From NCBI GenBank assembly GCA_934096015.1, contig CAKOLD010000001.1, positions 27,069 through 91,068 on the forward strand: 64,000 nt of DNA, read 5' to 3'. Origin of the DNA: an uncultured Bacilli bacterium. Its GTDB lineage: Bacteria; Bacillota_I; Bacilli_A; RF39; UBA660. How positions within the stretch are numbered: the first letter of the stretch is position 1; each line of letters starts with the position of its first letter. Positions 15,699-54,762 of the stretch are shown piece by piece. The position numbers were made by a program, and so were the translations under genes. The notes below the pieces were generated by a model, which was given only the letters and a program-made list of their open reading frames with translations, was not told the origin of the DNA and searched no databases.

Positions 15699-15775
15699 TT
15701 GTATCACCACGTAAATTATAAATTTCATTTTTTAATAAGTCAAACATTTTCGGTTAATAGCCGTAATCTTTTTAT

Positions 15776-16921
15776 TTGCAAAACATAAAATGTAAAGAAG
15801 GGAGTAAATCATTGAATAATTGTGATATAAGAAAAAATCCATCATGTTGTAATAATTTTCCTAATCCTCAAATAGGACCTACGGGACCTACAGGGCCTTT
15901 TGGACCAACAGGTCCTCAAGGTATTCAAGGCATTCAAGGTATTCCAGGAGAAACTGGACCTACGGGACCTCAAGGTATTCAAGGAATCCAGGGTATTCAA
16001 GGTATTCCGGGAGCTGTTGGAGCAACAGGACCTACGGGACCAACGGGACCTCAAGGAACTGCTGGAACTCAAGGAGTTACTGGTCCGACTGGACCTCAGG
16101 GAGAAACAGGACCTACGGGACCAACGGGACCTCAAGGAACTGCTGGAACTCAAGGAGCTACTGGTCCGACTGGACCTCAGGGAGAAACAGGACCAACGGG
16201 GCCAACAGGTCCTCAAGGAATAACCGGAACTCAAGGAGTCACCGGTCCGACTGGGCCTACGGGGCCAACGGGCCCAACAGGCCCTGCTGGAACTGCAGAT
16301 ACCATAAGTATAGGAAATGTAGAAACTGGAGACGCAGGAACTGCAGCACAAATAACAGACACTGGAAGTGGAACTAATCACATTTTAAATTTTGTGATTC
16401 CTAAAGGCACTACTGAAACTACACAACGTAATGCCTACCTGGTTACATTTAATGAAAACAATCAAAATCCAATAGATGTATTAAGCAACAACAAAATTCC
16501 ACTTACAAAAAAAGAAATAGATATAACAAATATAGTAACTCTAGACCCAACAGATAATACAATTCAATTTAATGTTCCGGGGTACTATCAAATCAATTTT
16601 ACTGCTTTTGCATATGCAAGTGATAATGGAAGAGATTTTGATCAAACAAAAGATTTTGTATCTATCGGATTAAGAACGGCTGGTACAGACGACATATATG
16701 TTGGTGCTAGTAAATGGACAAATTCAACAATAGCCACTGAAATAACGGGCCAAGGAATAATTTCAGTACCAGATATTTCTACTCCATTTGAATTAGTAAA
16801 CTTAAGCCCTAGTACTATTCACTTAACAAGTCCAGATATGAATTATATTAAATCAAGTTCATATTTTACAAACCCACTAGTAACTATTACAATTGAATAC
16901 TTAGGAAGACAAAATATATAA
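15776..16921 (+). CDS. BclA-like collagen-triple-helix repeat protein (exosporium/surface glycoprotein candidate)
   Basis: The N-terminal region is followed by about 150 residues of G-X-Y repeats dominated by GPT/GPQ/GIQ triplets. The C-terminal domain of about 200 aa is non-collagenous and beta-rich. The likely start is the TTG at 15812, downstream of a GAAGGGAG RBS. Confidence 0.7.
16028..16207 (+). repeat. tandem 90-nt direct duplication inside the collagen-like region (30-aa unit [16 protein letters not shown](V/A)[13 protein letters not shown])
   Basis: Two near-identical 90-nt units with 1-2 mismatches can be read directly at 16028-16117 and 16118-16207. Confidence 0.8.
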
Positions 16922-21920: not shown

Positions 21921-22273
21921 TGGTGGAGCCGAGCGGAATCGAACCGCTGTCCAAAATAACTTCAAAATAACGTCTACAGGTTTAGTTAGAATTAAAATTT
22001 CATTAATAAAAAAGTATCTAACAAACTATTTATTAACTAAGTTTATAAATTATTCATTTTTTAATCTAAACAAATTAAAAAATATATCTTGTATATATGA
22101 ACCAAATATTAATCTACAAGAAAACCAATATTCAGCGCCAAAATTGCTAAATTAAGCAAATGCTAAGGCAGTATTATAATTATTGTCAGTTAATTTAAAC
22201 TGTGCTACTTAGGATTAGCTACCACCTGCAATTAAATCAAAACATTATTCTGTCGAAACCAATAAACGGCCCC
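21921..22273 (-). ncRNA. ssrA: tmRNA (ssrA), about 353 nt
   Basis: Minus strand 5' end is GGGGCCGUUUAUUGGUUUCGACAG. The 3' end GGUUCGAUUCCGCUCGGCUCCACCA gives a tRNA-Ala-like acceptor/T-arm. The internal tag reading frame GCA CAG UUU AAA UUA ACU GAC AAU AAU UAU AAU ACU GCC UUA GCA UUU GCU UAA gives the tag AQFKLTDNNYNTALAFA. Confidence 0.85.
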
Positions 22274-28283: not shown

Positions 28284-28530
28284 AATTTCTCCTTCCATAA
28301 TAAAAAACATGAACAAAAGGACGAAAAAATTCCGCGATACCACCTTTATTCATGTTTTAGCATGCTCTCAAATTTTTAACGCAATTAACGATTTAAACTC
28401 CAGAACCATGTTCATTGTTTTTTTATAATTCTCTTTCACCATTTAAGAACTCTCTAAATATAAAGCCACAATTACTCTTTCCTTCTTCGTCTAACAAGTG
28501 TATTCTAACATAATATTATTTTTTATACAA
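28284..28530 (-). promoter_or_regulatory. T-box riboswitch leader (Met specifier) upstream of metG
   Basis: Minus-strand T-box sequence AAAGGUGGUAUCGCGGAA (plus 28330-28348). Intrinsic terminator ACAUGAAUAAAGG...CCUUUUGUUCAUGU plus U-run overlaps the antiterminator. AG-box GAAAGAGUA. Candidate specifier AUG-A in CAAUGAACAUGG. Confidence 0.7.
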
Positions 28531-36163: not shown

Positions 36164-37732
36164 CTAATTAATTTCTATTATATCACCAAAAACTTCTTTT
36201 GCATCTTGTTCTACAGAATCTAACGTGCCATCCTGTTTTTGCTCGTCTTCTTCAATATAATGATCATATTTATTTTTATTGACAATATAATCTTTTTTTA
36301 TTTTATTACATTCTTCAGTAAATAAACAAATAAATTTATATGTCTTATTTTCAATTTTCTCAAATTCTCGTTCTAACAAATTTAAATTATTATTAAAAAT
36401 AATGCTATCACTTTGTATATCGGTGGAAAAAATAACATTACTATCACTAACTACTTCCACAGTAGCAGAATTAACATAACCAAGCAAATTATAATTATTA
36501 TATTCGCCTAATTTATAAATGAAATCTTTCCAATATTCACAAAATTGTTGTTTTAAAGATTTTTGAGCTCCATAAAAAGCATTATTAATTCTTATAAATA
36601 AAAAATTATCATCAATTTTATTAGTTTTTATTTCCCGGGAAATATTTTTTTCTACTTTTTTTTGGGAAATATTTTCTTTTTTTGCTATTTTAGGCTGATT
36701 TCCTTGAAAATATGTTAAAAATGAAATCAATAATAAATTATAAGCATTTTCCACTAATTTCAACTTTGTCTCTATATCAAATAAATCATCTATTATTTTT
36801 TTACAAAAATCAAAATCGTAATCAACATCATCATTACCTTTTTTTATACTTATACTCTGATCAATCAAATATGACAACATTTCATCAACTAAAGAATTAA
36901 TATCAATTCCTTGAATTTGTATTTCTTGAAAAATTTTTAAAAATTCTTCTATATCATTTTCATAAATAGCCTTAATTATTTTATCAATATACTGATTAGA
37001 AACTAATCCAAATGTTTCATTAATAATTTCTACTGTTATATTATTTGTAATTTTTGACAATTGATCAAGATAACTTAAACAATCACGTAAACAACCATCT
37101 GACATTGTAGCTAACAAATCTACAGAAGCATCATCAATGTCTATATTCTCTTTTTCAGCAATAAATAAAAGATGTTCTCTTATTTCTGAATTAGTCAATT
37201 TTTTAAAATCAAAACGTTGACAACGCGATAGCACAGTTATAGGTACCTTTTGAATATCAGTAGTAGCAAAAATAAAAATAACGTGCGCTGGAGGTTCCTC
37301 TAAGGTCTTCAAAAATGCATTCCAAGCACTATTAGACAACATATGAACTTCATCAATAATATAAATCTTATATTTAGACATAGATGGCACTAACTTTACA
37401 TTATTTCTGATTTCTCTTATTTCATCAACACCATTATTGCTGGCCGCATCAATTTCAATAATATCTGGATTTTCAGAAAAATTTAAACAATTCTTACATT
37501 TGCCACAACTATCCCCATTAACTGGAGAAAGACAATTCAAAACCTTAGCAAATATTTTTGCAGTACTTGTTTTACCAGTTCCTCTTGGACCAGTAAATAT
37601 ATATGCATGTGCAATTTTATCTTTTACAATAGAACCAATAAGAGTCTCTTTTACAAATTCTTGACCCACTAATTCCCTAAAATTTTGTGGTCTATATTTT
37701 CTATATAAAACTTTATAACCCATTCTAACCAC
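36164..37732 (-). CDS. dnaX: DNA polymerase III subunit gamma/tau
   Basis: YRKYRPQNFRELVGQE...HAYIFTGPRGTGKTSTAKIFAK are AAA+ clamp-loader motifs. 522 aa. Confidence 0.9.
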   Translation of the reverse strand: MVRMGYKVLYRKYRPQNFRELVGQEFVKETLIGSIVKDKIAHAYIFTGPRGTGKTSTAKIFAKVLNCLSPVNGDSCGKCKNCLNFSENPDIIEIDAASNNGVDEIREIRNNVKLVPSMSKYKIYIIDEVHMLSNSAWNAFLKTLEEPPAHVIFIFATTDIQKVPITVLSRCQRFDFKKLTNSEIREHLLFIAEKENIDIDDASVDLLATMSDGCLRDCLSYLDQLSKITNNITVEIINETFGLVSNQYIDKIIKAIYENDIEEFLKIFQEIQIQGIDINSLVDEMLSYLIDQSISIKKGNDDVDYDFDFCKKIIDDLFDIETKLKLVENAYNLLLISFLTYFQGNQPKIAKKENISQKKVEKNISREIKTNKIDDNFLFIRINNAFYGAQKSLKQQFCEYWKDFIYKLGEYNNYNLLGYVNSATVEVVSDSNVIFSTDIQSDSIIFNNNLNLLEREFEKIENKTYKFICLFTEECNKIKKDYIVNKNKYDHYIEEDEQKQDGTLDSVEQDAKEVFGDIIEIN

Positions 37733-38191: not shown

Positions 38192-38212
38192 TATAAACAT
38201 CCTTTTACTAAT

Positions 38213-38292
38213 AAAAAAAGCGCACATCAACAGAGGTTGTTATGGCTGCTGTCTTCCGACTCTGACCAGGTTTCAACTTATCAATTGCGCAA
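38213..38292 (-). ncRNA. ffs: small SRP RNA (4.5S/scRNA-type, ffs)
   Basis: Minus-strand ACCUGGUCAGAGUCGGAAGACAGCAGCC matches conserved domain IV, including the GGAA tetraloop. It is closed by the GCGCA/UGCGC helix and followed by a U-tract. The tadA-scr-dnaX position is conserved with B. subtilis. Confidence 0.6.
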
Positions 38293-38333
38293 ATAAATTA
38301 TAACAAATTTAAAGTTAGTTAACAACCCTATGG

Positions 38334-38591
38334 TTATCCACAATGTTTCACGTGAAACATAAAAAAATCTTCACTTGTTTTTTTCACAATAAATTAATGT
38401 TTTTACACATATAGATGCATTTTAACTAGTTTCAATTATTATTTTATAATTTATATATAGTTATTCACCAACTATATTAATTTATATTTATATTTATATT
38501 TATTAAAACCATTAAAAAGTTTTCCACAATGTTTCACGTGAAACATTGTAATTTTGGTTTGCTATTAATTATATTGTTTCACGTGAAACAT
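38334..38591 (+). repeat. non-coding module downstream of gyrA: DnaA-box-like 9-mers, (TTTATA)x4 tandem hexamers and three copies of an 18-bp palindrome ATGTTTCACGTGAAACAT
   Basis: TTATCCACA at 38334-38342 abuts palindrome copy 1 (38343-38360). TTTTCCACA at 38520-38528 abuts copy 2 (38529-38546). Copy 3 lies at 38574-38591 and is 17/18 palindromic. Degenerate boxes TTTTTCACA, TTTTACACA and TTATTCACC lie between. (TTTATA)4 is at 38481-38504. Confidence 0.6.
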
Positions 38592-38604
38592 AAAAAAAGA
38601 AGAA

Positions 38605-41055
38605 TTACTCTTCTTCTTGATCGCTATTATCAGTAGTTTCTTCGTAATGCGATACAACACTTATTGCTGATACACTTTGTGAATCTTTTAAATTTATTAA
38701 TTTAACACCTTGAGTTACTCTGCCAAGTTGAGATATTTGATCAATTGGCAAACGAATAACTATTCCTGAATCAGTAATAATCATTAAATCCTGATCATCA
38801 TCTACAATCTTGAATGCAATTAAATTACCATTCTTTTCAGTAATACTTAAAGCCTTAACACCTTTACTTCCGCGTTTAGTCTTTCTATATTCTGATAATA
38901 CTGTTTTTTTACCATATCCATTTTTTGTAACAATTAAAATGTTATTAGAATCATCTGCTACATCTAATCCTATACATAAAGATGAATCTAAATTAATTCC
39001 TTTAACTCCAGAAGCTGTTCTTCCCATAACACGAATTTCATCTTCGTTAAATATTACCATTCTTCCTTCACTAGAAGCTAAAATAATGTTATTATCACCA
39101 GTCGTTTTTCTAACACCAATTAATTCATCATTATCTTTCAACGAAATTGCTATTTTTCCTGAAGTTCTTATATTATCAAAATCTTCTATTCTTGTTTTCT
39201 TTACCAAACCTCGCTTCGTTGCAAATAGTAAATATTTATAAGAATCATCATTATTTGTTAATTTTACCATAGAATTGATAGTCTCATCTTTTTCTATTTG
39301 TAATAAATTGATTATAGGTAATCCTTTTGATTGTCTAGAATATTCAGGGACTTCATATCCTTTCAATCTATATACTTTACCCTTATTAGTAAAGAACAAT
39401 AAGTAATCATGTGTTGATAAGTTTATCATTTGTTCAGCAAAATCTTCATCATTGGTTGACATTCCCTTTACACCGACTCCACCTCTATTTTGCGATTTAA
39501 ATGTATCAACAGTTGTTCTTTTTATATATCCTTTATTTGTTAGAACAATCATAACGCTTTCTTCAGGAATCAAAGATTCATCTTCAATATAATCAATTGC
39601 TGTCATATCAATCTCTGTTTTTCTATCATCTCCAAATTTGTCTTTAATTTCTAACATTTCTTGTTTAATTATTGCTAAAACCTTATTATCATCACTTAAA
39701 ATACCTCTTAAACGATCAATTTCTTTTAATAAAGCTTCTAATTCTTCCTCAATTTTAGCTCTTTCCAAACCAGTTAAACGCCTTAGTTTTAACTCTAATA
39801 TTGCATTACATTGAATATCATCTAGATTGAAACGTTCCATTAATTTAGTTTTAGCATCAACATCTGCTTCAGCTTCCCTAATAATACTAATAACCTCATC
39901 TAAGTTATCTAATGCGATTTTATATCCATTCAAAACGTGGACTCTATTTTCAGCTTTATTAAGTTCAAACTTTGTCCTTCTGATAATTACGCTTTTTTGA
40001 TAATCAATATATTTAGCAATGATATCTTTTAATCCTAAAGTCTTTGGTTGCCCATCATCAAGCATTAATAAATTAATACCATAACTTGTTTGTAACTGAG
40101 TATGTTTATATAAATTATTTAAAACAACATTGGCATTAGCTTCTCTTTTTAAAGTAATTACTACTTTAACACCATTTTTTTGATTAGACTCATCATGTAA
40201 ATCAGCAATACCATCTATTTGTTTTTCACGTACTAACTCACCAATACGTTCAATAAACATTTTTTTATTAACTTGATAAGGAATTTCTCTTACAATTAAT
40301 CTATTTTTCCCATTATGTTCTTCAACATCAACCTTTCCTCTAATTGTAATTGAACCTTTACCAGTTTCATATGCTTTCTTAATTCCTGAATTTCCTAAAA
40401 TTTTTGCACCTGTAGGAAAATCTGGACCTTTAATATATTGCATTAATCCTAATGTATCAATTTCCGGATTATCAATATACGCAACACAACCATCAATAAC
40501 CTCTTCTAGATTATGAGGAGGAATATTTGTAGCCATACCCACAGCGATTCCCATAGTTCCGTTTACTAAAATATTAGGAAATTTACAAGGCAAAACAACA
40601 GGTTCTTCTCTAACATTATCAAAATTAGGTCTAAAATCAACAGTATCTTTATTAATATCTCTTAAAAGTTCTAAAGAAATTTTAGATAATCTTGCTTCTG
40701 TATAACGATATGCCGCTGCTGAGTCACCATCTATTGAACCAAAATTACCATGTCCATCTATCAAAACATATCTATAACTAAAATCCTGCGCCATTCTAAC
40801 CATAGCATCATAAACCGAAGAATCTCCATGTGGATGATATTTACCTAAAACGGCTCCGACAGTAGTTGCACTTTTTCTGAAAGGTTTATCAGGTGTTAAA
40901 CCATCCTCATACATGGTATAAAGTATTCTTCTATGAACTGGTTTTAAGCCATCTCGTAAATCAGGTAATGCTCTAGCTACAATTACACTCATCGAATAAT
41001 ACAAAAAAGAATTTTCTATTTCATCTACAATATTTTTCTGTCTTAATTTATCCAT
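38605..41055 (-). CDS. gyrA: DNA gyrase subunit A
   Basis: [26 protein letters not shown] ... YHPHGD. 816 aa. Confidence 0.97.
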
Positions 41056-44163: not shown

Positions 44164-44625
44164 TCATTTTTCTCCTCTTCTTTTTCTTAAAACATATTCC
44201 AATCTATTAGCTTTTAATATTTGATTATTTAAAACATTGTAACTTAAAGAAAATTCCAAACTTTCTTCATTTAAAAACTGTACAATACTTTTATTTTGGT
44301 CTTTATCAAAATAATATTTATCTATATTATTCAAACTTATCCAAGCACACTGTTTTAAACGAGGAGAAGTTGTTGGAAAAAAGACAATAGGATTATTTTC
44401 CTCTACTATTATGGGAGCTTTATAACTAATTCCAATTAAAGAATCTGTTCCTTTTATTCTTCCATTCATAGAACTTCCATAATATTTACAATTAAAATCC
44501 ATTATCTTATTTGGTTTACTATCAACCAAAAAGCAATCATCCTCTTCATATACTAAAGACTTTTTTTCTCCACATGGAATTATAGCCAATGTTTTTTTTG
44601 AAATAGAATAATTTTTCATATTCAC
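44164..44625 (-). CDS. comK: ComK-family protein (competence transcription factor homolog)
   Basis: LAIIPCGEKKSLVYEEDDCFLVDSKPNKIMDFNCKYYGSSMNGRIKGTDSLIGISYKAPIIVEENNPIVFFPTTSPRLKQCAWISLNNI aligns along its length with B. subtilis ComK (AVLPEEIDGK..CSKIIEKDCVFYV...SCRFFGSSYAGRKAGTYEVTKISHKPPIMVDPSNQIFLFPTLSSTRPQCGWISHVHV). Confidence 0.7.
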   Translation of the reverse strand: MNMKNYSISKKTLAIIPCGEKKSLVYEEDDCFLVDSKPNKIMDFNCKYYGSSMNGRIKGTDSLIGISYKAPIIVEENNPIVFFPTTSPRLKQCAWISLNNIDKYYFDKDQNKSIVQFLNEESLEFSLSYNVLNNQILKANRLEYVLRKRRGEK

Positions 44626-45835: not shown

Positions 45836-45957
45836 TTTTATTCCTTCTTTCTTATATAAGTATTATCTTTATTATTAGCGTGTAAAATGTTGAAAAATGT
45901 ATTAATTACCTAAAACAAAAGTAAAAGTGTTTGTTAATAAATATTTAATTATCCACA

Positions 45958-47316
45958 TTATCCAATTTTTTCTTTAATTTGTTTAATCTGTTCATTCAAT
46001 TCTTCATTAGTTTTTAATTCTTCTGTTACCTTTTCTATAGCATGTAGAACGGTTGAATGATCTCTATTTCCAAACTCTAATCCGATCCTAGAAACTGTTT
46101 CTTCAGTAGTCATTCTGCAAATATACATTGCGATTTGTCTAGCATTATTAATATCCGCAGTTCTTTTTTTACTTTTTAAATTATCAACAGTTAAATTAAA
46201 ATATTCTGCAACTCCCTTTTGTATCTTAATTATATTATTAGTTCCATAATAGGATTTTCCTAAATAATCTTTTAAAGCTTCAGTTGCAAATTCTAAATTT
46301 ATGCATTGTGGAGACATTATTGCCGCATAAGCATATAATCTTGTTATTGCACCTTCTAAGTGTCTAACATCACTTTCACAATTATTCGCAATATATTCAA
46401 TAACTTCATTTTGAACTAATTTTGCTACTTCGTGCCCTGCCATCTTATCCCGTAATATTTTACATCTTAATTCAAAATCTGGTGGAAATATATTGACCGT
46501 TAAGCCCCATCTAAATCTCGTTCGTAGTCTATCTTCAAGCAATTTTAAATCATCAGGAGATCTATCACTACTAATAATAATTTGTTTATTAGAGTCATAT
46601 AAAGTATTAAATGTGTGAAAAAATTCTTGCTGTGTTTTTTCAGCTCCACCTAAAAATTGAATATCATCAATTATTAAAACATCTATATTTCTGTATTTTT
46701 CTTTAAAATGATCAACAATATCATAATTATCAGTATTTTTTTTGTTAATTCCAATAAAATCAGAAATAAATTCTTCACTTGTAACATATAAAACATTTAA
46801 ATCTGAATGGTCAACAATATAATTTCCTACAGCGTGCATTAAATGAGTTTTCCCCAGCCCACTCTTTCCGTGGATAAAAAGAGGATTGTATATTTTTCCA
46901 GGCTGTTCAGCAACCGCAACAGCTGCTGTTTGTGCAAATCTATTAGAATCCCCTATTACAAAATTTTCAAATTTATATTTAGGATTTAAGTTAGAATTAA
47001 AATTTCTTTCTTTATTTGAAATATCATCTAAAGATCTTGTTACTTGCTTTTTTTCATCTATTTCCTCATGAATTAAAAACTCCAAATCATAAGTATTTCC
47101 AGTCAAACTAGTAATAATCTCTTCAATTAAGTCATAATATGTAGTAGACAAAAATGTTTTATGAAATGACATTGGAACTTCGATAACTAATTTATCATCT
47201 TCCATAGAATACAATTTAGTATCTTTAAACCAAGTATCATAAGAAACACTCATCAATTTGTTCTTTATAACCTTTAAAAAATTATTCCAAAGTGTATCTT
47301 TGTCCAAAAAAACCAC
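45958..47316 (-). CDS. dnaA: chromosomal replication initiator protein DnaA
   Basis: NPLFIHGKSGLGKTHLMHAVGN is the AAA+ Walker A. The C-terminal DnaA-box binding domain includes VDNLKSKKRTADINNARQIAMYICR. Confidence 0.97.
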   Translation of the reverse strand: MVFLDKDTLWNNFLKVIKNKLMSVSYDTWFKDTKLYSMEDDKLVIEVPMSFHKTFLSTTYYDLIEEIITSLTGNTYDLEFLIHEEIDEKKQVTRSLDDISNKERNFNSNLNPKYKFENFVIGDSNRFAQTAAVAVAEQPGKIYNPLFIHGKSGLGKTHLMHAVGNYIVDHSDLNVLYVTSEEFISDFIGINKKNTDNYDIVDHFKEKYRNIDVLIIDDIQFLGGAEKTQQEFFHTFNTLYDSNKQIIISSDRSPDDLKLLEDRLRTRFRWGLTVNIFPPDFELRCKILRDKMAGHEVAKLVQNEVIEYIANNCESDVRHLEGAITRLYAYAAIMSPQCINLEFATEALKDYLGKSYYGTNNIIKIQKGVAEYFNLTVDNLKSKKRTADINNARQIAMYICRMTTEETVSRIGLEFGNRDHSTVLHAIEKVTEELKTNEELNEQIKQIKEKIG

Positions 47317-47616
47317 CCCGCATTCATGACACCTTTTTCTACAGATAATTTTAAACTACTTTTTCACAAAATAAAAGACAAAATTTTTAAAATTTGCAAA
47401 ATCCACAAAATATCAACATAATTTTCAACACACAACATCACTAAATAAGCTAAAAAACAAACTTTTCAACATTTTCCACAAATTGAAATTCACATCAATA
47501 TTAAAATTTCCACAATTAACGTTTAAAAATAAATTAAAATAAAAATCAAAATAAAATTGACATCTAAAGAGTAATGTTGTAGAATAAAGTAGCTAAAAAG
47601 AGGTGGAGGTGTCAAA
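47317..47616 (+). promoter_or_regulatory. dnaA-rpmH intergenic region: oriC-type cluster of co-oriented DnaA-box-like 9-mers (TTNTCCACA variants) plus dnaA/rpmH promoters
   Basis: AAATCCACA at 47399-47407, TTTTCCACA at 47472-47480, ATTTCCACA at 47506-47514 and TTTTTCACA at about 47360. The background is very AT-rich. A perfect TTATCCACA also sits at 45949-45957 in the dnaA-dnaN spacer. Confidence 0.5.
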
Positions 47617-47739
47617 ATGAAAAGAACTTATCAACCAAATAATCGTAAAAAGAGTAAAAAACATGGTTTTTTTGCTAGAAAAGTAACGAATATTTTAAAA
47701 AATAGAAGAAAAAAAGGACGTAAACGTTTATGCAAATAA
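47617..47739 (+). CDS. rpmH: 50S ribosomal protein L34
   Basis: [54 protein letters not shown]. Below the ORF-track length cut-off. Confidence 0.9.
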
Positions 47740-49671: not shown

Positions 49672-49747
49672 TTCTTCTTTTTTACATGTCAAATTATTTC
49701 CCGGGAAATAATTATGTGCTATAATACATTAACGAAAGGAAAAAAAT

Positions 49748-53736: not shown

Positions 53737-54762
53737 ATGAAAGTTGAACCTCAAATACAATTTATAAATGTAATGGACATTATTCCAAATAGATTTCAAC
53801 CAAGACTAACTTTTGACGAAAAGGCACTTCAAGAATTAGCATCTTCAATAAAAGAACATGGTATAATTCAACCACTTGTTTTAAGAAGATTAGGCGATAA
53901 ATATGAGATAATTGCTGGAGAAAGAAGATATAAAGCATCCCAAATAGCTGGATTAAACCAAGTCCCTGCAATAATTACTCAAATGGATGATAACAAAAGT
54001 GCAGAAGTTGCCATAGTTGAAAATTTACAAAGAAAAAATTTATCAGCAATAGAAGAAGCTAAATCTTATAAAAAATTATTAGATAGAGGTTATCTAACTC
54101 AAGAAGAGTTAGCAAAAAAGATGGGAATATCTCAATCAGCTATTGCTAATAAAGTTAGATTATTGAATTTAACCAACGAAGTTCAAAATGCATTAATAGA
54201 AGAAAAAATAAGTGAAAGACATGCCAGAAGTTTACTTCAAATAAGTGATCCAGAAAAACAAAAAGAAATGCTAAACAAAATAATAAATGGTAGATGGACA
54301 GTAAGACAATTAGATGAAGAAATTAAAAAGATAAAACCAGTTGTTGAAAAACAACTACCTCCAGAGCCAGCTTTTGTACCATTAAAAGAAGAAAAATCTA
54401 ATAATATATCTACATTGATCCAAGAAGATGATGATATGAAAGAATTGGCAAGACAGATAGAAGCCTTAAATAAATCAATAGGAATAACGTCAGATACTAA
54501 CTATGAAACATTCAATATTCCAACGGCTGAAGAATTAAATAAACCAGCTACTGAAATACCAACACTTCCTAAAAAAGAACCAATAATCGCACCATCACCA
54601 GAGCCAGTAAAGCCAAAGAAAATAGAAGTTGGAAATATAGAAAGTGCAGTTAAATCAATAAGAGAAATAGCAAAAGAAATAGAAGAAGCAAAATTTAAAA
54701 TTGAAACTGAAGAATTTGATTTTGAAGATCTTTATCAAATAATAATTAAAATTGAAAAATAG
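53737..54762 (+). CDS. parB: ParB/Spo0J/Noc-family DNA-binding protein with an atypical proline-rich C-terminal extension
   Basis: ParB-box IIAGERRYKAS. HTH LTQEELAKKMGISQSAIANKVRLL. The C-terminal 140 aa (KPVVEKQLPPEPAFVPL...EPIIAPSPEPVKPKK) is unlike the canonical Spo0J dimerisation domain. No ParA/Soj gene is adjacent. Confidence 0.75.
   Translation: MKVEPQIQFINVMDIIPNRFQPRLTFDEKALQELASSIKEHGIIQPLVLRRLGDKYEIIAGERRYKASQIAGLNQVPAIITQMDDNKSAEVAIVENLQRKNLSAIEEAKSYKKLLDRGYLTQEELAKKMGISQSAIANKVRLLNLTNEVQNALIEEKISERHARSLLQISDPEKQKEMLNKIINGRWTVRQLDEEIKKIKPVVEKQLPPEPAFVPLKEEKSNNISTLIQEDDDMKELARQIEALNKSIGITSDTNYETFNIPTAEELNKPATEIPTLPKKEPIIAPSPEPVKPKKIEVGNIESAVKSIREIAKEIEEAKFKIETEEFDFEDLYQIIIKIEK

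Follow-up and report, generated by a model that had tools for sequence, protein, structure and literature searches.

parS palindromes and adjoining putative DnaA boxes in a candidate origin-proximal centromere array between gyrA and the SRP RNA gene of uncultured gut Bacilli

The analyzed DNA (the window, meaning the whole 64-kb stretch) has a GC content of ~25%, and its gene order is typical of a Firmicute origin region. On the minus strand lie dnaA, dnaN, a ComK-family ORF, recF, gyrB, and gyrA, and the last of these is followed by a 303-bp spacer, the small SRP RNA gene (ffs), tadA, and dnaX. The plus strand harbors, from 47.7 kb onward, rnpA, yidC, jag, trmE, gidA, gidB, and a gene of the ParB family (Table 1). 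The host is an uncultured, walled, spore-forming gut bacterium, with genes for PBP1, SpoIID, YabG, and RNA polymerase delta. Identical contigs have been recovered from Hadza and other human gut metagenomes, and the gyrA-ffs spacer is base-for-base the same across independent metagenome assemblies, which excludes an assembly artifact.

Table 1. Predicted features of the window discussed in the text
Feature	Position	Strand	Remarks
NBS, first copy	36630–36643		perfect ATTTCCCGGGAAAT; none expected in shuffles
ffs (small SRP RNA gene)	38204–38301	−	53.3 bits; conserved downstream neighbor of the parS array
Putative sigma-70 promoter of ffs	38297–38325	−	−35 TTGTTA, 17-bp spacer, TG-extended −10 TATAAT
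Perfect DnaA box	38334–38342	+	TTATCCACA; ACA end 1 bp from the parS core; between parS and the ffs promoter
parS copy nearest ffs	38344–38359		perfect 16-bp TGTTTCACGTGAAACA; 18 bp upstream of the ffs −35 hexamer
Two-mismatch DnaA boxes	38380–38469	+	TTTTTCACA (38380), TTTTACACA (38401), TTATTCACC (38461); significance weak
One-mismatch DnaA box	38520–38528	+	TTTTCCACA; same 1-bp gap and same orientation toward parS
Middle parS copy	38530–38545		perfect TGTTTCACGTGAAACA; within the extended palindrome ACAA-parS-TTGT
parS copy nearest the gyrA stop	38575–38590		perfect 16-bp TGTTTCACGTGAAACA
Putative gyrA intrinsic terminator	38592–38618	−	10-bp A/G-rich stem, stop codon in the loop, then U-run
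gyrA	38605–41055	−	NF004043, 1172 bits; conserved upstream neighbor of the parS array
oriC region	45836–47620	−	dnaA with box-bearing spacers on both sides
Perfect DnaA box of oriC	45949–45957
dnaA	45958–47316	−
TGTGGA/TGTTGA-type boxes of oriC	~47400–47520		several
NBS, second copy	49696–49709
ParB-family gene	53737–54762	+	only one in the window; beside gidB; Noc-type specificity residues Q-K-N-R

The spacer contains no ORF of at least 40 aa, in agreement with the original prediction for this DNA. A hairpin that overlaps the gyrA stop codon is probably this gene's own intrinsic terminator; a 63-nt segment carrying it together with a parS hairpin (see below) folds at −13.2 kcal/mol (z = −2.65). 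On the side of ffs, a putative sigma-70 promoter that matches the consensus at 10 of 12 positions, with TG preceding the −10 hexamer, probably serves the SRP RNA gene. Only 8 bp separate it from a perfect DnaA box.

The most conspicuous feature of the spacer is a 16-bp palindromic core, TGTTTCACGTGAAACA, which occurs three times within 250 bp, where 0.11 copies are expected; none of 100 shuffles had as many. Other copies with up to two mismatches are absent from the rest of the 64-kb window. The original prediction described a thrice-repeated, perfect 18-bp palindrome, and two identical copies of the 18-mer ATGTTTCACGTGAAACAT are indeed present at 38343–38360 and 38529–38546. The third, at 38574–38591, retains a perfect 16-bp core, while the 18-mer begins with T in place of A and thus carries one mismatch. 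All three cores are perfect matches to TGTTNCACGTGAAACA, the conserved chromosomal parS at which ParB/Spo0J nucleates (PMC7022226), that is, to the idealized parS consensus, which is written TGTTTCAC-GTGAAACA. The exact 18-bp palindrome is also included in the 20-mer GATGTTTCACGTGAAACATC used in ParB-parS crystallography (Jalal et al.), and the 16-mer appears in 27 papers. By its sequence, the thrice-repeated palindrome is thus the standard bacterial centromere sequence parS, the predicted loading site of ParB/Spo0J, and it lies 7 to 9 kb from dnaA and the GC-skew minimum. One of the readings offered originally, the binding site of an uncharacterised regulator, has to be given up since the palindrome is the textbook ParB site. 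In genome scanning, TGTTTCACGTGAAACA should therefore be checked among the operators before a palindrome is called unknown.

Two other assignments of the repeat were considered and rejected. The palindrome is not an NBS, the site of Noc, since at the two discriminating positions its half-site has the bases of TGTTTCAC (parS) and not those of TATTTCCC (NBS, with A and C). A CRISPR-like array is ruled out by AT-rich spacers of 20 to 270 bp, the lack of cas genes, and the identity of the repeat as parS.

The same site was followed through related genomes. Species-representative genomes were scanned with the C-terminal half of GyrA, which yielded 47 relatives at 59 to 73% identity; they are metagenome-assembled genomes of uncultured gut Bacilli, including “Clostridium sp. 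CAG:609” and “Firmicutes bacterium CAG:460.” When arrays were counted with the general pattern TGTTNCACGTGNAACA, 46 of the 48 loci (the window included) were found to have one to nine parS-type palindromes directly after gyrA, and the two loci without them are contigs that end just after this gene. Up to nine sites occur in ~1.2 kb. The SRP RNA gene lies downstream of the array in all six relatives tested for it, and parS is essentially absent elsewhere in the ~20 kb around the locus. A REP/MITE-like dispersed element is hence ruled out, consistently with the original prediction, as both the window and the relatives have their copies in a single spacer only.

Over ~200 parS copies, the core columns are invariant in sequence and not merely in pairing, indicating recognition by a protein; the conserved site is effectively 18 bp long (A-parS-T). 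Some lineages carry another known parS variant throughout the array (TGTTCCACGTGGAACA, TGTTCCACGTGAAACA, or TGTTACACGTGAAACA). In the TGTTCCACGTGGAACA subgroup, parS escapes a search that allows one mismatch, and it is this variant that these genomes carry, which rules out that parS was replaced by NBS there. Some of the arrays are near-perfect tandem repeats, with exact 64-bp units in locus L031. The array-wide variants and the tandem repeats together indicate that the arrays evolve in concert. By sequence and synteny, the three copies of the window are a small version of a clade-wide, putative centromere array at a fixed syntenic position. The entire centromere of this clade would thus be a tight array in the gyrA-ffs spacer, with no parAB operon near the origin.

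The second component of the spacer is a set of DnaA boxes. Within ~300 bp there are two boxes with at most one mismatch and five with at most two, and all five are on the plus strand with none on the minus strand (P ~0.002 in spacer shuffles), so that the earlier description of degenerate, co-oriented boxes holds. It is also correct that boxes abut the palindromes: TTATCCACA adjoins the 18-mer nearest ffs, and TTTTCCACA adjoins the middle one. The latter box variant is found at 47472 in the window's oriC as well.

To see how far this adjacency extends in the clade, all flanks (n = 438) were read 5′ to 3′ toward parS, and a box was counted if it ended no more than 10 bp from parS. Boxes with at most one mismatch point toward parS in 55 cases and away from it in none, where ~3 are expected from background, and with at most two mismatches the numbers are 97 and 9; these counts are not independent events, since units are duplicated as arrays grow and the species share ancestry. 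The adjacency is seen in 25 to 32 species-level loci, and 50 of the 57 boxes inside arrays adjoin a parS, although no more than roughly 25 to 50% of the parS copies carry a box. No adjacent DnaA box was found at 16 parS sites of outgroup Clostridia. The gap between box and parS varies from 0 to 10 bp. Box placement relative to gyrA differs as well, one subclade having the box on the gyrA-distal flank of parS and another on the gyrA-proximal flank. The fusion of co-oriented DnaA boxes to the palindrome, first proposed from the window, is thus conserved and highly nonrandom across the clade, and the suggestion that a regulator's site is juxtaposed to DnaA was essentially right, with ParB as the regulator.

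We consider it highly probable, on the evidence of sequence and its conservation, that the palindromes constitute an origin-proximal parS centromere and that the adjacent boxes bind DnaA, preferably as a reservoir or checkpoint. The parS-adjacent boxes are most likely real DnaA binding sites. An unlikely alternative accepts the palindromes as parS and denies that DnaA reads their neighbors, which would bind some other factor or extend the ParB loading element in a lineage-specific way, the likeness to TTATCCACA being coincidental or inherited through duplication of units. It would accommodate the many boxes that deviate from the consensus at one or two positions (TTATCAACA and TTATTAACA, for example), the growth of arrays by tandem duplication as in L031, and the variable gap. 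However, five loci, the window among them, have a perfect TTATCCACA next to parS, and the motif is one-sided and hence lies outside the symmetric ParB site. An alignment of the flanks anchored at the box shows conservation of TTATC[A/C]ACA and, beyond 7 nt outside it, no more than background information content, which argues against hitchhiking on recent duplications. The box variant also follows the variants of each subclade's own oriC. In the close subclade, TTATCAACA dominates next to parS as well as in oriC, where 16 origins contain 49 copies, whereas in the L026 group TTTTCCACA and TTATCCACA occur in both places and TTATCAACA in neither. This covariation is partial in the TGTTCCACGTGGAACA subgroup, a point in favor of the alternative, because the boxes next to its parS sites belong to weak variants (such as TTATTAACA) and other variants are more frequent at oriC.

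A perfect parS in 46 species needs a reader, and the window offers only one member of the ParB family. This protein is closer to Noc than to Spo0J (285 bits on TIGR04285, with a cut-off of 315), its best PDB matches are the Noc structures 7ng0, 7nfu, and 7ol9, and its four specificity positions read Q-K-N-R, a combination shared by 117 of its 120 closest homologs, all of them Noc-type. As a Noc it is atypical, since it lacks the N-terminal helix region, has a C-terminal extension, and carries N at position 184. Noc and NBS belong to the same superfamily of proteins and sites as ParB and parS, and perfect NBS copies are present in the window together with this Noc-type protein; many relatives have one to three NBS right after their parS arrays. 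A second ParB-family protein, with residues of the parS type (R173...G201), was not detected in the window by tblastn or Pfam annotation. Neither a parS-type ParB nor ParA was found in the same species up to +27 kb from oriC, beyond the window ends, within ±10 kb of gyrA in the relatives (tblastn of the loci), or within ±10 kb of two Noc-like orthologs. ParA was likewise not seen in the window or in the relatives' loci searched.

Taken together, these observations might suggest that the Noc-like protein is the sole ParB-family member and reads both NBS and parS, so that the array would be a Noc-type platform for nucleoid occlusion or organization and not a classical ParB centromere. The absence of a canonical ParB or ParA from ~74 kb around oriC and from the relatives' loci, the perfect NBS directly after so many arrays, and the atypical features of the protein all speak for this reading, which we nevertheless regard as improbable. 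A mutational study of ParB and Noc found that Q173 and R201 with lysine at 179 or 184 specify NBS, that R173 is invariant in parS-specific variants, and that dual binders mostly have T or S at 201. The protein has Q173 and R201 with K179, which is the NBS-specific configuration, so that it would not be expected to read parS. Moreover, two distinct types of perfect palindrome stand side by side, as two separate readers would keep them, and the ~74 kb searched for ParB and ParA are a small part of the genome. We infer that a canonical ParB is encoded elsewhere in the genome, outside the window.

The original prediction had viewed the spacer as an origin-like module, possibly the second half of a split oriC. 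The curve of cumulative GC skew declines steadily across 38.3 kb, with no inflection there, and reaches its minimum at ~47.5 kb in the dnaA-rpmH spacer, ~9 kb away. DnaA-box clusters are recognizable in the dnaA-rpmH and dnaA-dnaN spacers, which mark the real oriC. The run of four TTTATA hexamers, described at 38481–38504 as resembling an unwinding element, does exist (TRF score 48), and may be read as (ATTTAT)4 at 38480–38503; it is one of 92 comparable AT-rich microrepeats in the window. A run of at least three such hexamers after gyrA was found in none of the 47 relatives and only in the window's species, so that the run is real and a conserved unwinding element it is not. On the grounds of the skew, the position of dnaA, and the nonconserved AT-rich run, an origin or a split oriC in the spacer is rejected. 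Textbook biology accounts for the finding, taken at face value, as the chromosome's parS centromere, and the origin-like reading should be dropped.

For related reasons it is very improbable that the spacer is mainly a DnaA-box cluster for titration, or a part of a split oriC, with the palindrome secondary. Two strong and three weak co-oriented boxes do lie in 300 bp of origin-proximal DNA, and DnaA-box clusters (DBCs) of Bacillus subtilis are known to restrain initiation. Against this stand the skew profile and the hexamer run already mentioned, the finding that array boxes are tied to parS (50 of 57) and not clustered among themselves, and the fact that the element invariant over 46 species is parS and not the box. 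As an additional role of the boxes within the parS array, DnaA titration is a live possibility.

It is scarcely credible that the palindromes act mainly as RNA or single-stranded DNA hairpins, that is, as terminators, processing sites, or stabilizers of the gyrA transcript, since the 16-bp core is invariant in sequence and not just in pairing, pointing to protein recognition. Some observations fit such a role: flanks lengthen the palindrome by complementary, copy-specific bases (3.3 extra bp, versus 1.65 ± 0.08 when partners were shuffled), a T-run comes after the first parS hairpin in loci L008, L009, L034, and L036, and the middle copy of the window folds at −12.2 kcal/mol (z = −3.2) and is weakly terminator-like on both strands. 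Yet extended palindromes can also arise neutrally, as template-switch correction around a perfect palindrome may lengthen it. On the gyrA strand of the window, T-runs precede copies 1 and 3, as was pointed out originally to argue that these hairpins do not terminate gyrA, and since a separate hairpin with a U-run lies at the stop codon, termination of gyrA by the parS hairpins is rejected for the window.

From these sequence comparisons we infer ParB binding, DnaA binding, and any functional coupling between them at the array. In the parS reading, a canonical CTP-dependent ParB/Spo0J dimer, encoded outside the window, would nucleate on each 16-bp site, close into a clamp, and slide or spread over ~10 to 15 kb, reaching oriC 7 to 9 kb away. 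The spread ParB would mark the newly replicated origin region for loading of SMC-condensin, and if a ParA exists, the same mark could serve ParA-driven segregation. The DnaA boxes, 0 to 8 bp from many of the parS copies and with their ACA ends toward parS, would place the replication initiator beside the loading sites of ParB. We prefer the view that the centromere array has a second role near the origin, as a DnaA reservoir or checkpoint similar to a DBC or datA, and that occupancy of this reservoir and loading of ParB may influence each other.

It is tempting to go further and assume that a parS-directed DnaA box forms, together with parS, a dedicated cis-element coupling replication initiation to centromere assembly, in which DnaA bound 0 to 8 bp from parS would gate loading of the ParB-CTP clamp or act as a one-sided roadblock, and ParB loading would set how much DnaA is held or released near oriC. 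We put this forward tentatively, as a possible and somewhat doubtful extension. The variable gap argues against a rigid contact between DnaA and ParB. A version in which DnaA closes off one end of the array and ParB is thereby directed to oriC is rejected, because subclades differ in the side of parS that carries the box. Should the coupling exist, the centromere array would be the main initiation-control locus of this lineage too, and might replace a missing Soj/ParA-DnaA pathway.

The centromere cluster itself belongs to a familiar class of elements. Chromosomal parS sites of the ParABS/Spo0J systems of B. subtilis, Streptococcus pneumoniae, Staphylococcus aureus, and others have the same 16-bp palindrome, and they are likewise origin proximal with several copies clustered. 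ParA may be absent from ParB-parS systems, as it is in S. pneumoniae and S. aureus. Elsewhere, however, the sites are scattered over the ori domain or lie inside parB, whereas here they are packed in one noncoding spacer, no parAB operon is near the origin, the cognate ParB was not located in the regions searched, and oriented DnaA boxes are attached to many of the copies. Plasmid centromeres made of iterated ParB boxes are also tight tandem arrays in noncoding DNA, comparable to the six to nine sites of some relatives, but the array of this clade is chromosomal, has the chromosomal parS sequence at a fixed syntenic position, and its spacers vary in length and sequence.

Two precedents exist for DnaA near a centromere or held near an origin. 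The parS region of Caulobacter crescentus contains boxes to which DnaA binds, enabling segregation (Mera et al. 2014, reviewed in PMC6399470), so that initiator and ParB share a locus near the origin, as they would in the array described here. That organism belongs to another phylum, whereas in the present clade the unit is repeated, has a strict box-then-parS orientation, occurs in dozens of species, and is predicted from sequence. The DBCs of B. subtilis, which act together with Spo0J/Soj to restrain DnaA and initiation, and datA of Escherichia coli resemble the array as origin-proximal groups of boxes able to hold DnaA. B. subtilis DBCs have not been described as fused to parS, while here there are few boxes per site and each is tethered to a parS.

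The new part is the conserved, oriented composite of box and parS, a repeated natural juxtaposition of the sites of the initiator and of the segregation protein with absolute orientation (55 versus 0). The literature treats the coupling of initiation to segregation and the reason for parS clustering as unsolved questions, and we found in it, for Firmicute-type bacteria, no account of a conserved composite of box and parS with strict orientation in an array fixed between gyrA and ffs. The ~26-bp composite TTATCCACAATGTTTCACGTGAAACA is expected to bind both proteins, which is directly testable in vitro. In a metagenome scan for the composite, among the matches listed, the low-GC, gyrA-linked ones belong to the same clade, and most of the others are a coding coincidence inside soj genes (one lineage of ~38% GC).

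In many relatives, the parS array that follows gyrA (parS being the 16-bp ParB/Spo0J centromere palindrome) has one to three perfect Noc-binding sites (NBS) of sequence TATTTCCCGGGAAATA directly past it, so that ParB sites adjoin Noc sites. The window itself contains two perfect NBS (ATTTCCCGGGAAAT), while none would be expected by chance in this 25% GC genome. Its gidB-linked ParB-family protein may, judging from its sequence, be an atypical Noc. Position 184, one of the specificity residues, is Asn instead of Lys in 117 of 120 homologues, and the protein is without the ~23 N-terminal residues found in Bacillus and Geobacillus Noc, a stretch that includes the membrane-targeting helix. The reading frame is closed by a stop codon 7 codons upstream, and a C-terminal extension of ~130 amino acids is present.

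In some relatives a T-run directly abuts the first parS hairpin after gyrA, and there the centromere site probably also serves as the gyrA intrinsic terminator. In the close subclade the last parS of the arrays is slightly degenerate, and past it comes a conserved ACGAAC(A/G)...-type motif, which is similar to half of a LexA/Cheo box.

Within a lineage, one parS variant (TGTTCCACGTGGAACA, TGTTCCACGTGAAACA, or TGTTACACGTGAAACA) is used across the whole array, and the TGTTACACGTGAAACA arrays are built of exact 64-bp tandem units. Such uniformity points to concerted evolution of the centromere arrays or to their recent amplification. Repeated parS palindromes break short-read assemblies, and parS arrays in metagenome-assembled genomes may therefore be under-counted; one independent contig ends inside its third parS copy. 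Individual palindromes are lengthened by 4 to 13 bp through their flanks, the extension differing from copy to copy, with a mean of 3.3 extra complementary base pairs versus 1.65 with shuffled partners. Selection for hairpin or cruciform potential could explain such complementarity, as could neutral template-switch correction.

In one abundant lineage, parS occurs within soj (parA), with a TGTTGAAAA-type 9-mer after it. By coincidence of coding sequence, this arrangement mimics the composite of a DnaA box beside and oriented toward parS.

Features in the window and in compared loci (L numbers: relatives or metagenome contigs)
Feature	Location	Strand	Remark
ParB-family gene, gidB-linked	window 53737-54762	+	Noc-type recognition residues Q-K-N-R
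Perfect NBS ATTTCCCGGGAAAT	window 36630-36643, 49696-49709		sequence match
Perfect NBS TATTTCCCGGGAAATA	L008 10970-10985, 11141-11156; L052 12346-12361		sequence match
First parS hairpin 3' of gyrA, then T-run	L008 9769-9800; L009 11351-11385; L034 11331-11360; L036 8638-8665		
Motif past last parS	L008 10647-10680; L009 12078-12110; L052 12247-12285; L006 11874-11905		
Single-variant parS arrays	L038-L044, L049, L050 (after gyrA); L030 11367-12050; L031 11304-11710		
Contig end inside third parS	L091 3021-3038		independent metagenome contig
parS with palindrome-extending flanks	L026 11305-12490; L027 11286-12335; window 38524-38551		
parS inside soj coding sequence	L096, L104, L108, some 30 further metagenome loci		about 38% GC
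Collagen triple-helix repeat protein	window 15767-16921	+	81-bp tandem repeats at 16019-16258
ComK-family ORF	window 44164-44625	-	between dnaN and recF
tmRNA	window 21921-22273	-	tag DNNYNTALAFA
T-box leader upstream of methionyl-tRNA synthetase gene	window 28314-28496	-	

The collagen-repeat gene belongs to a local GC-rich island (33%) and is adjoined by a GT2-TPR protein; together these features point to a BclA-like fibre, of the exosporium or of the surface. The dnaN-recF interval holds a small S4-like gene in many Firmicutes; the ComK-family arrangement is kept in relatives (L001, L092, and L094). The tmRNA and the T-box leader are ordinary.
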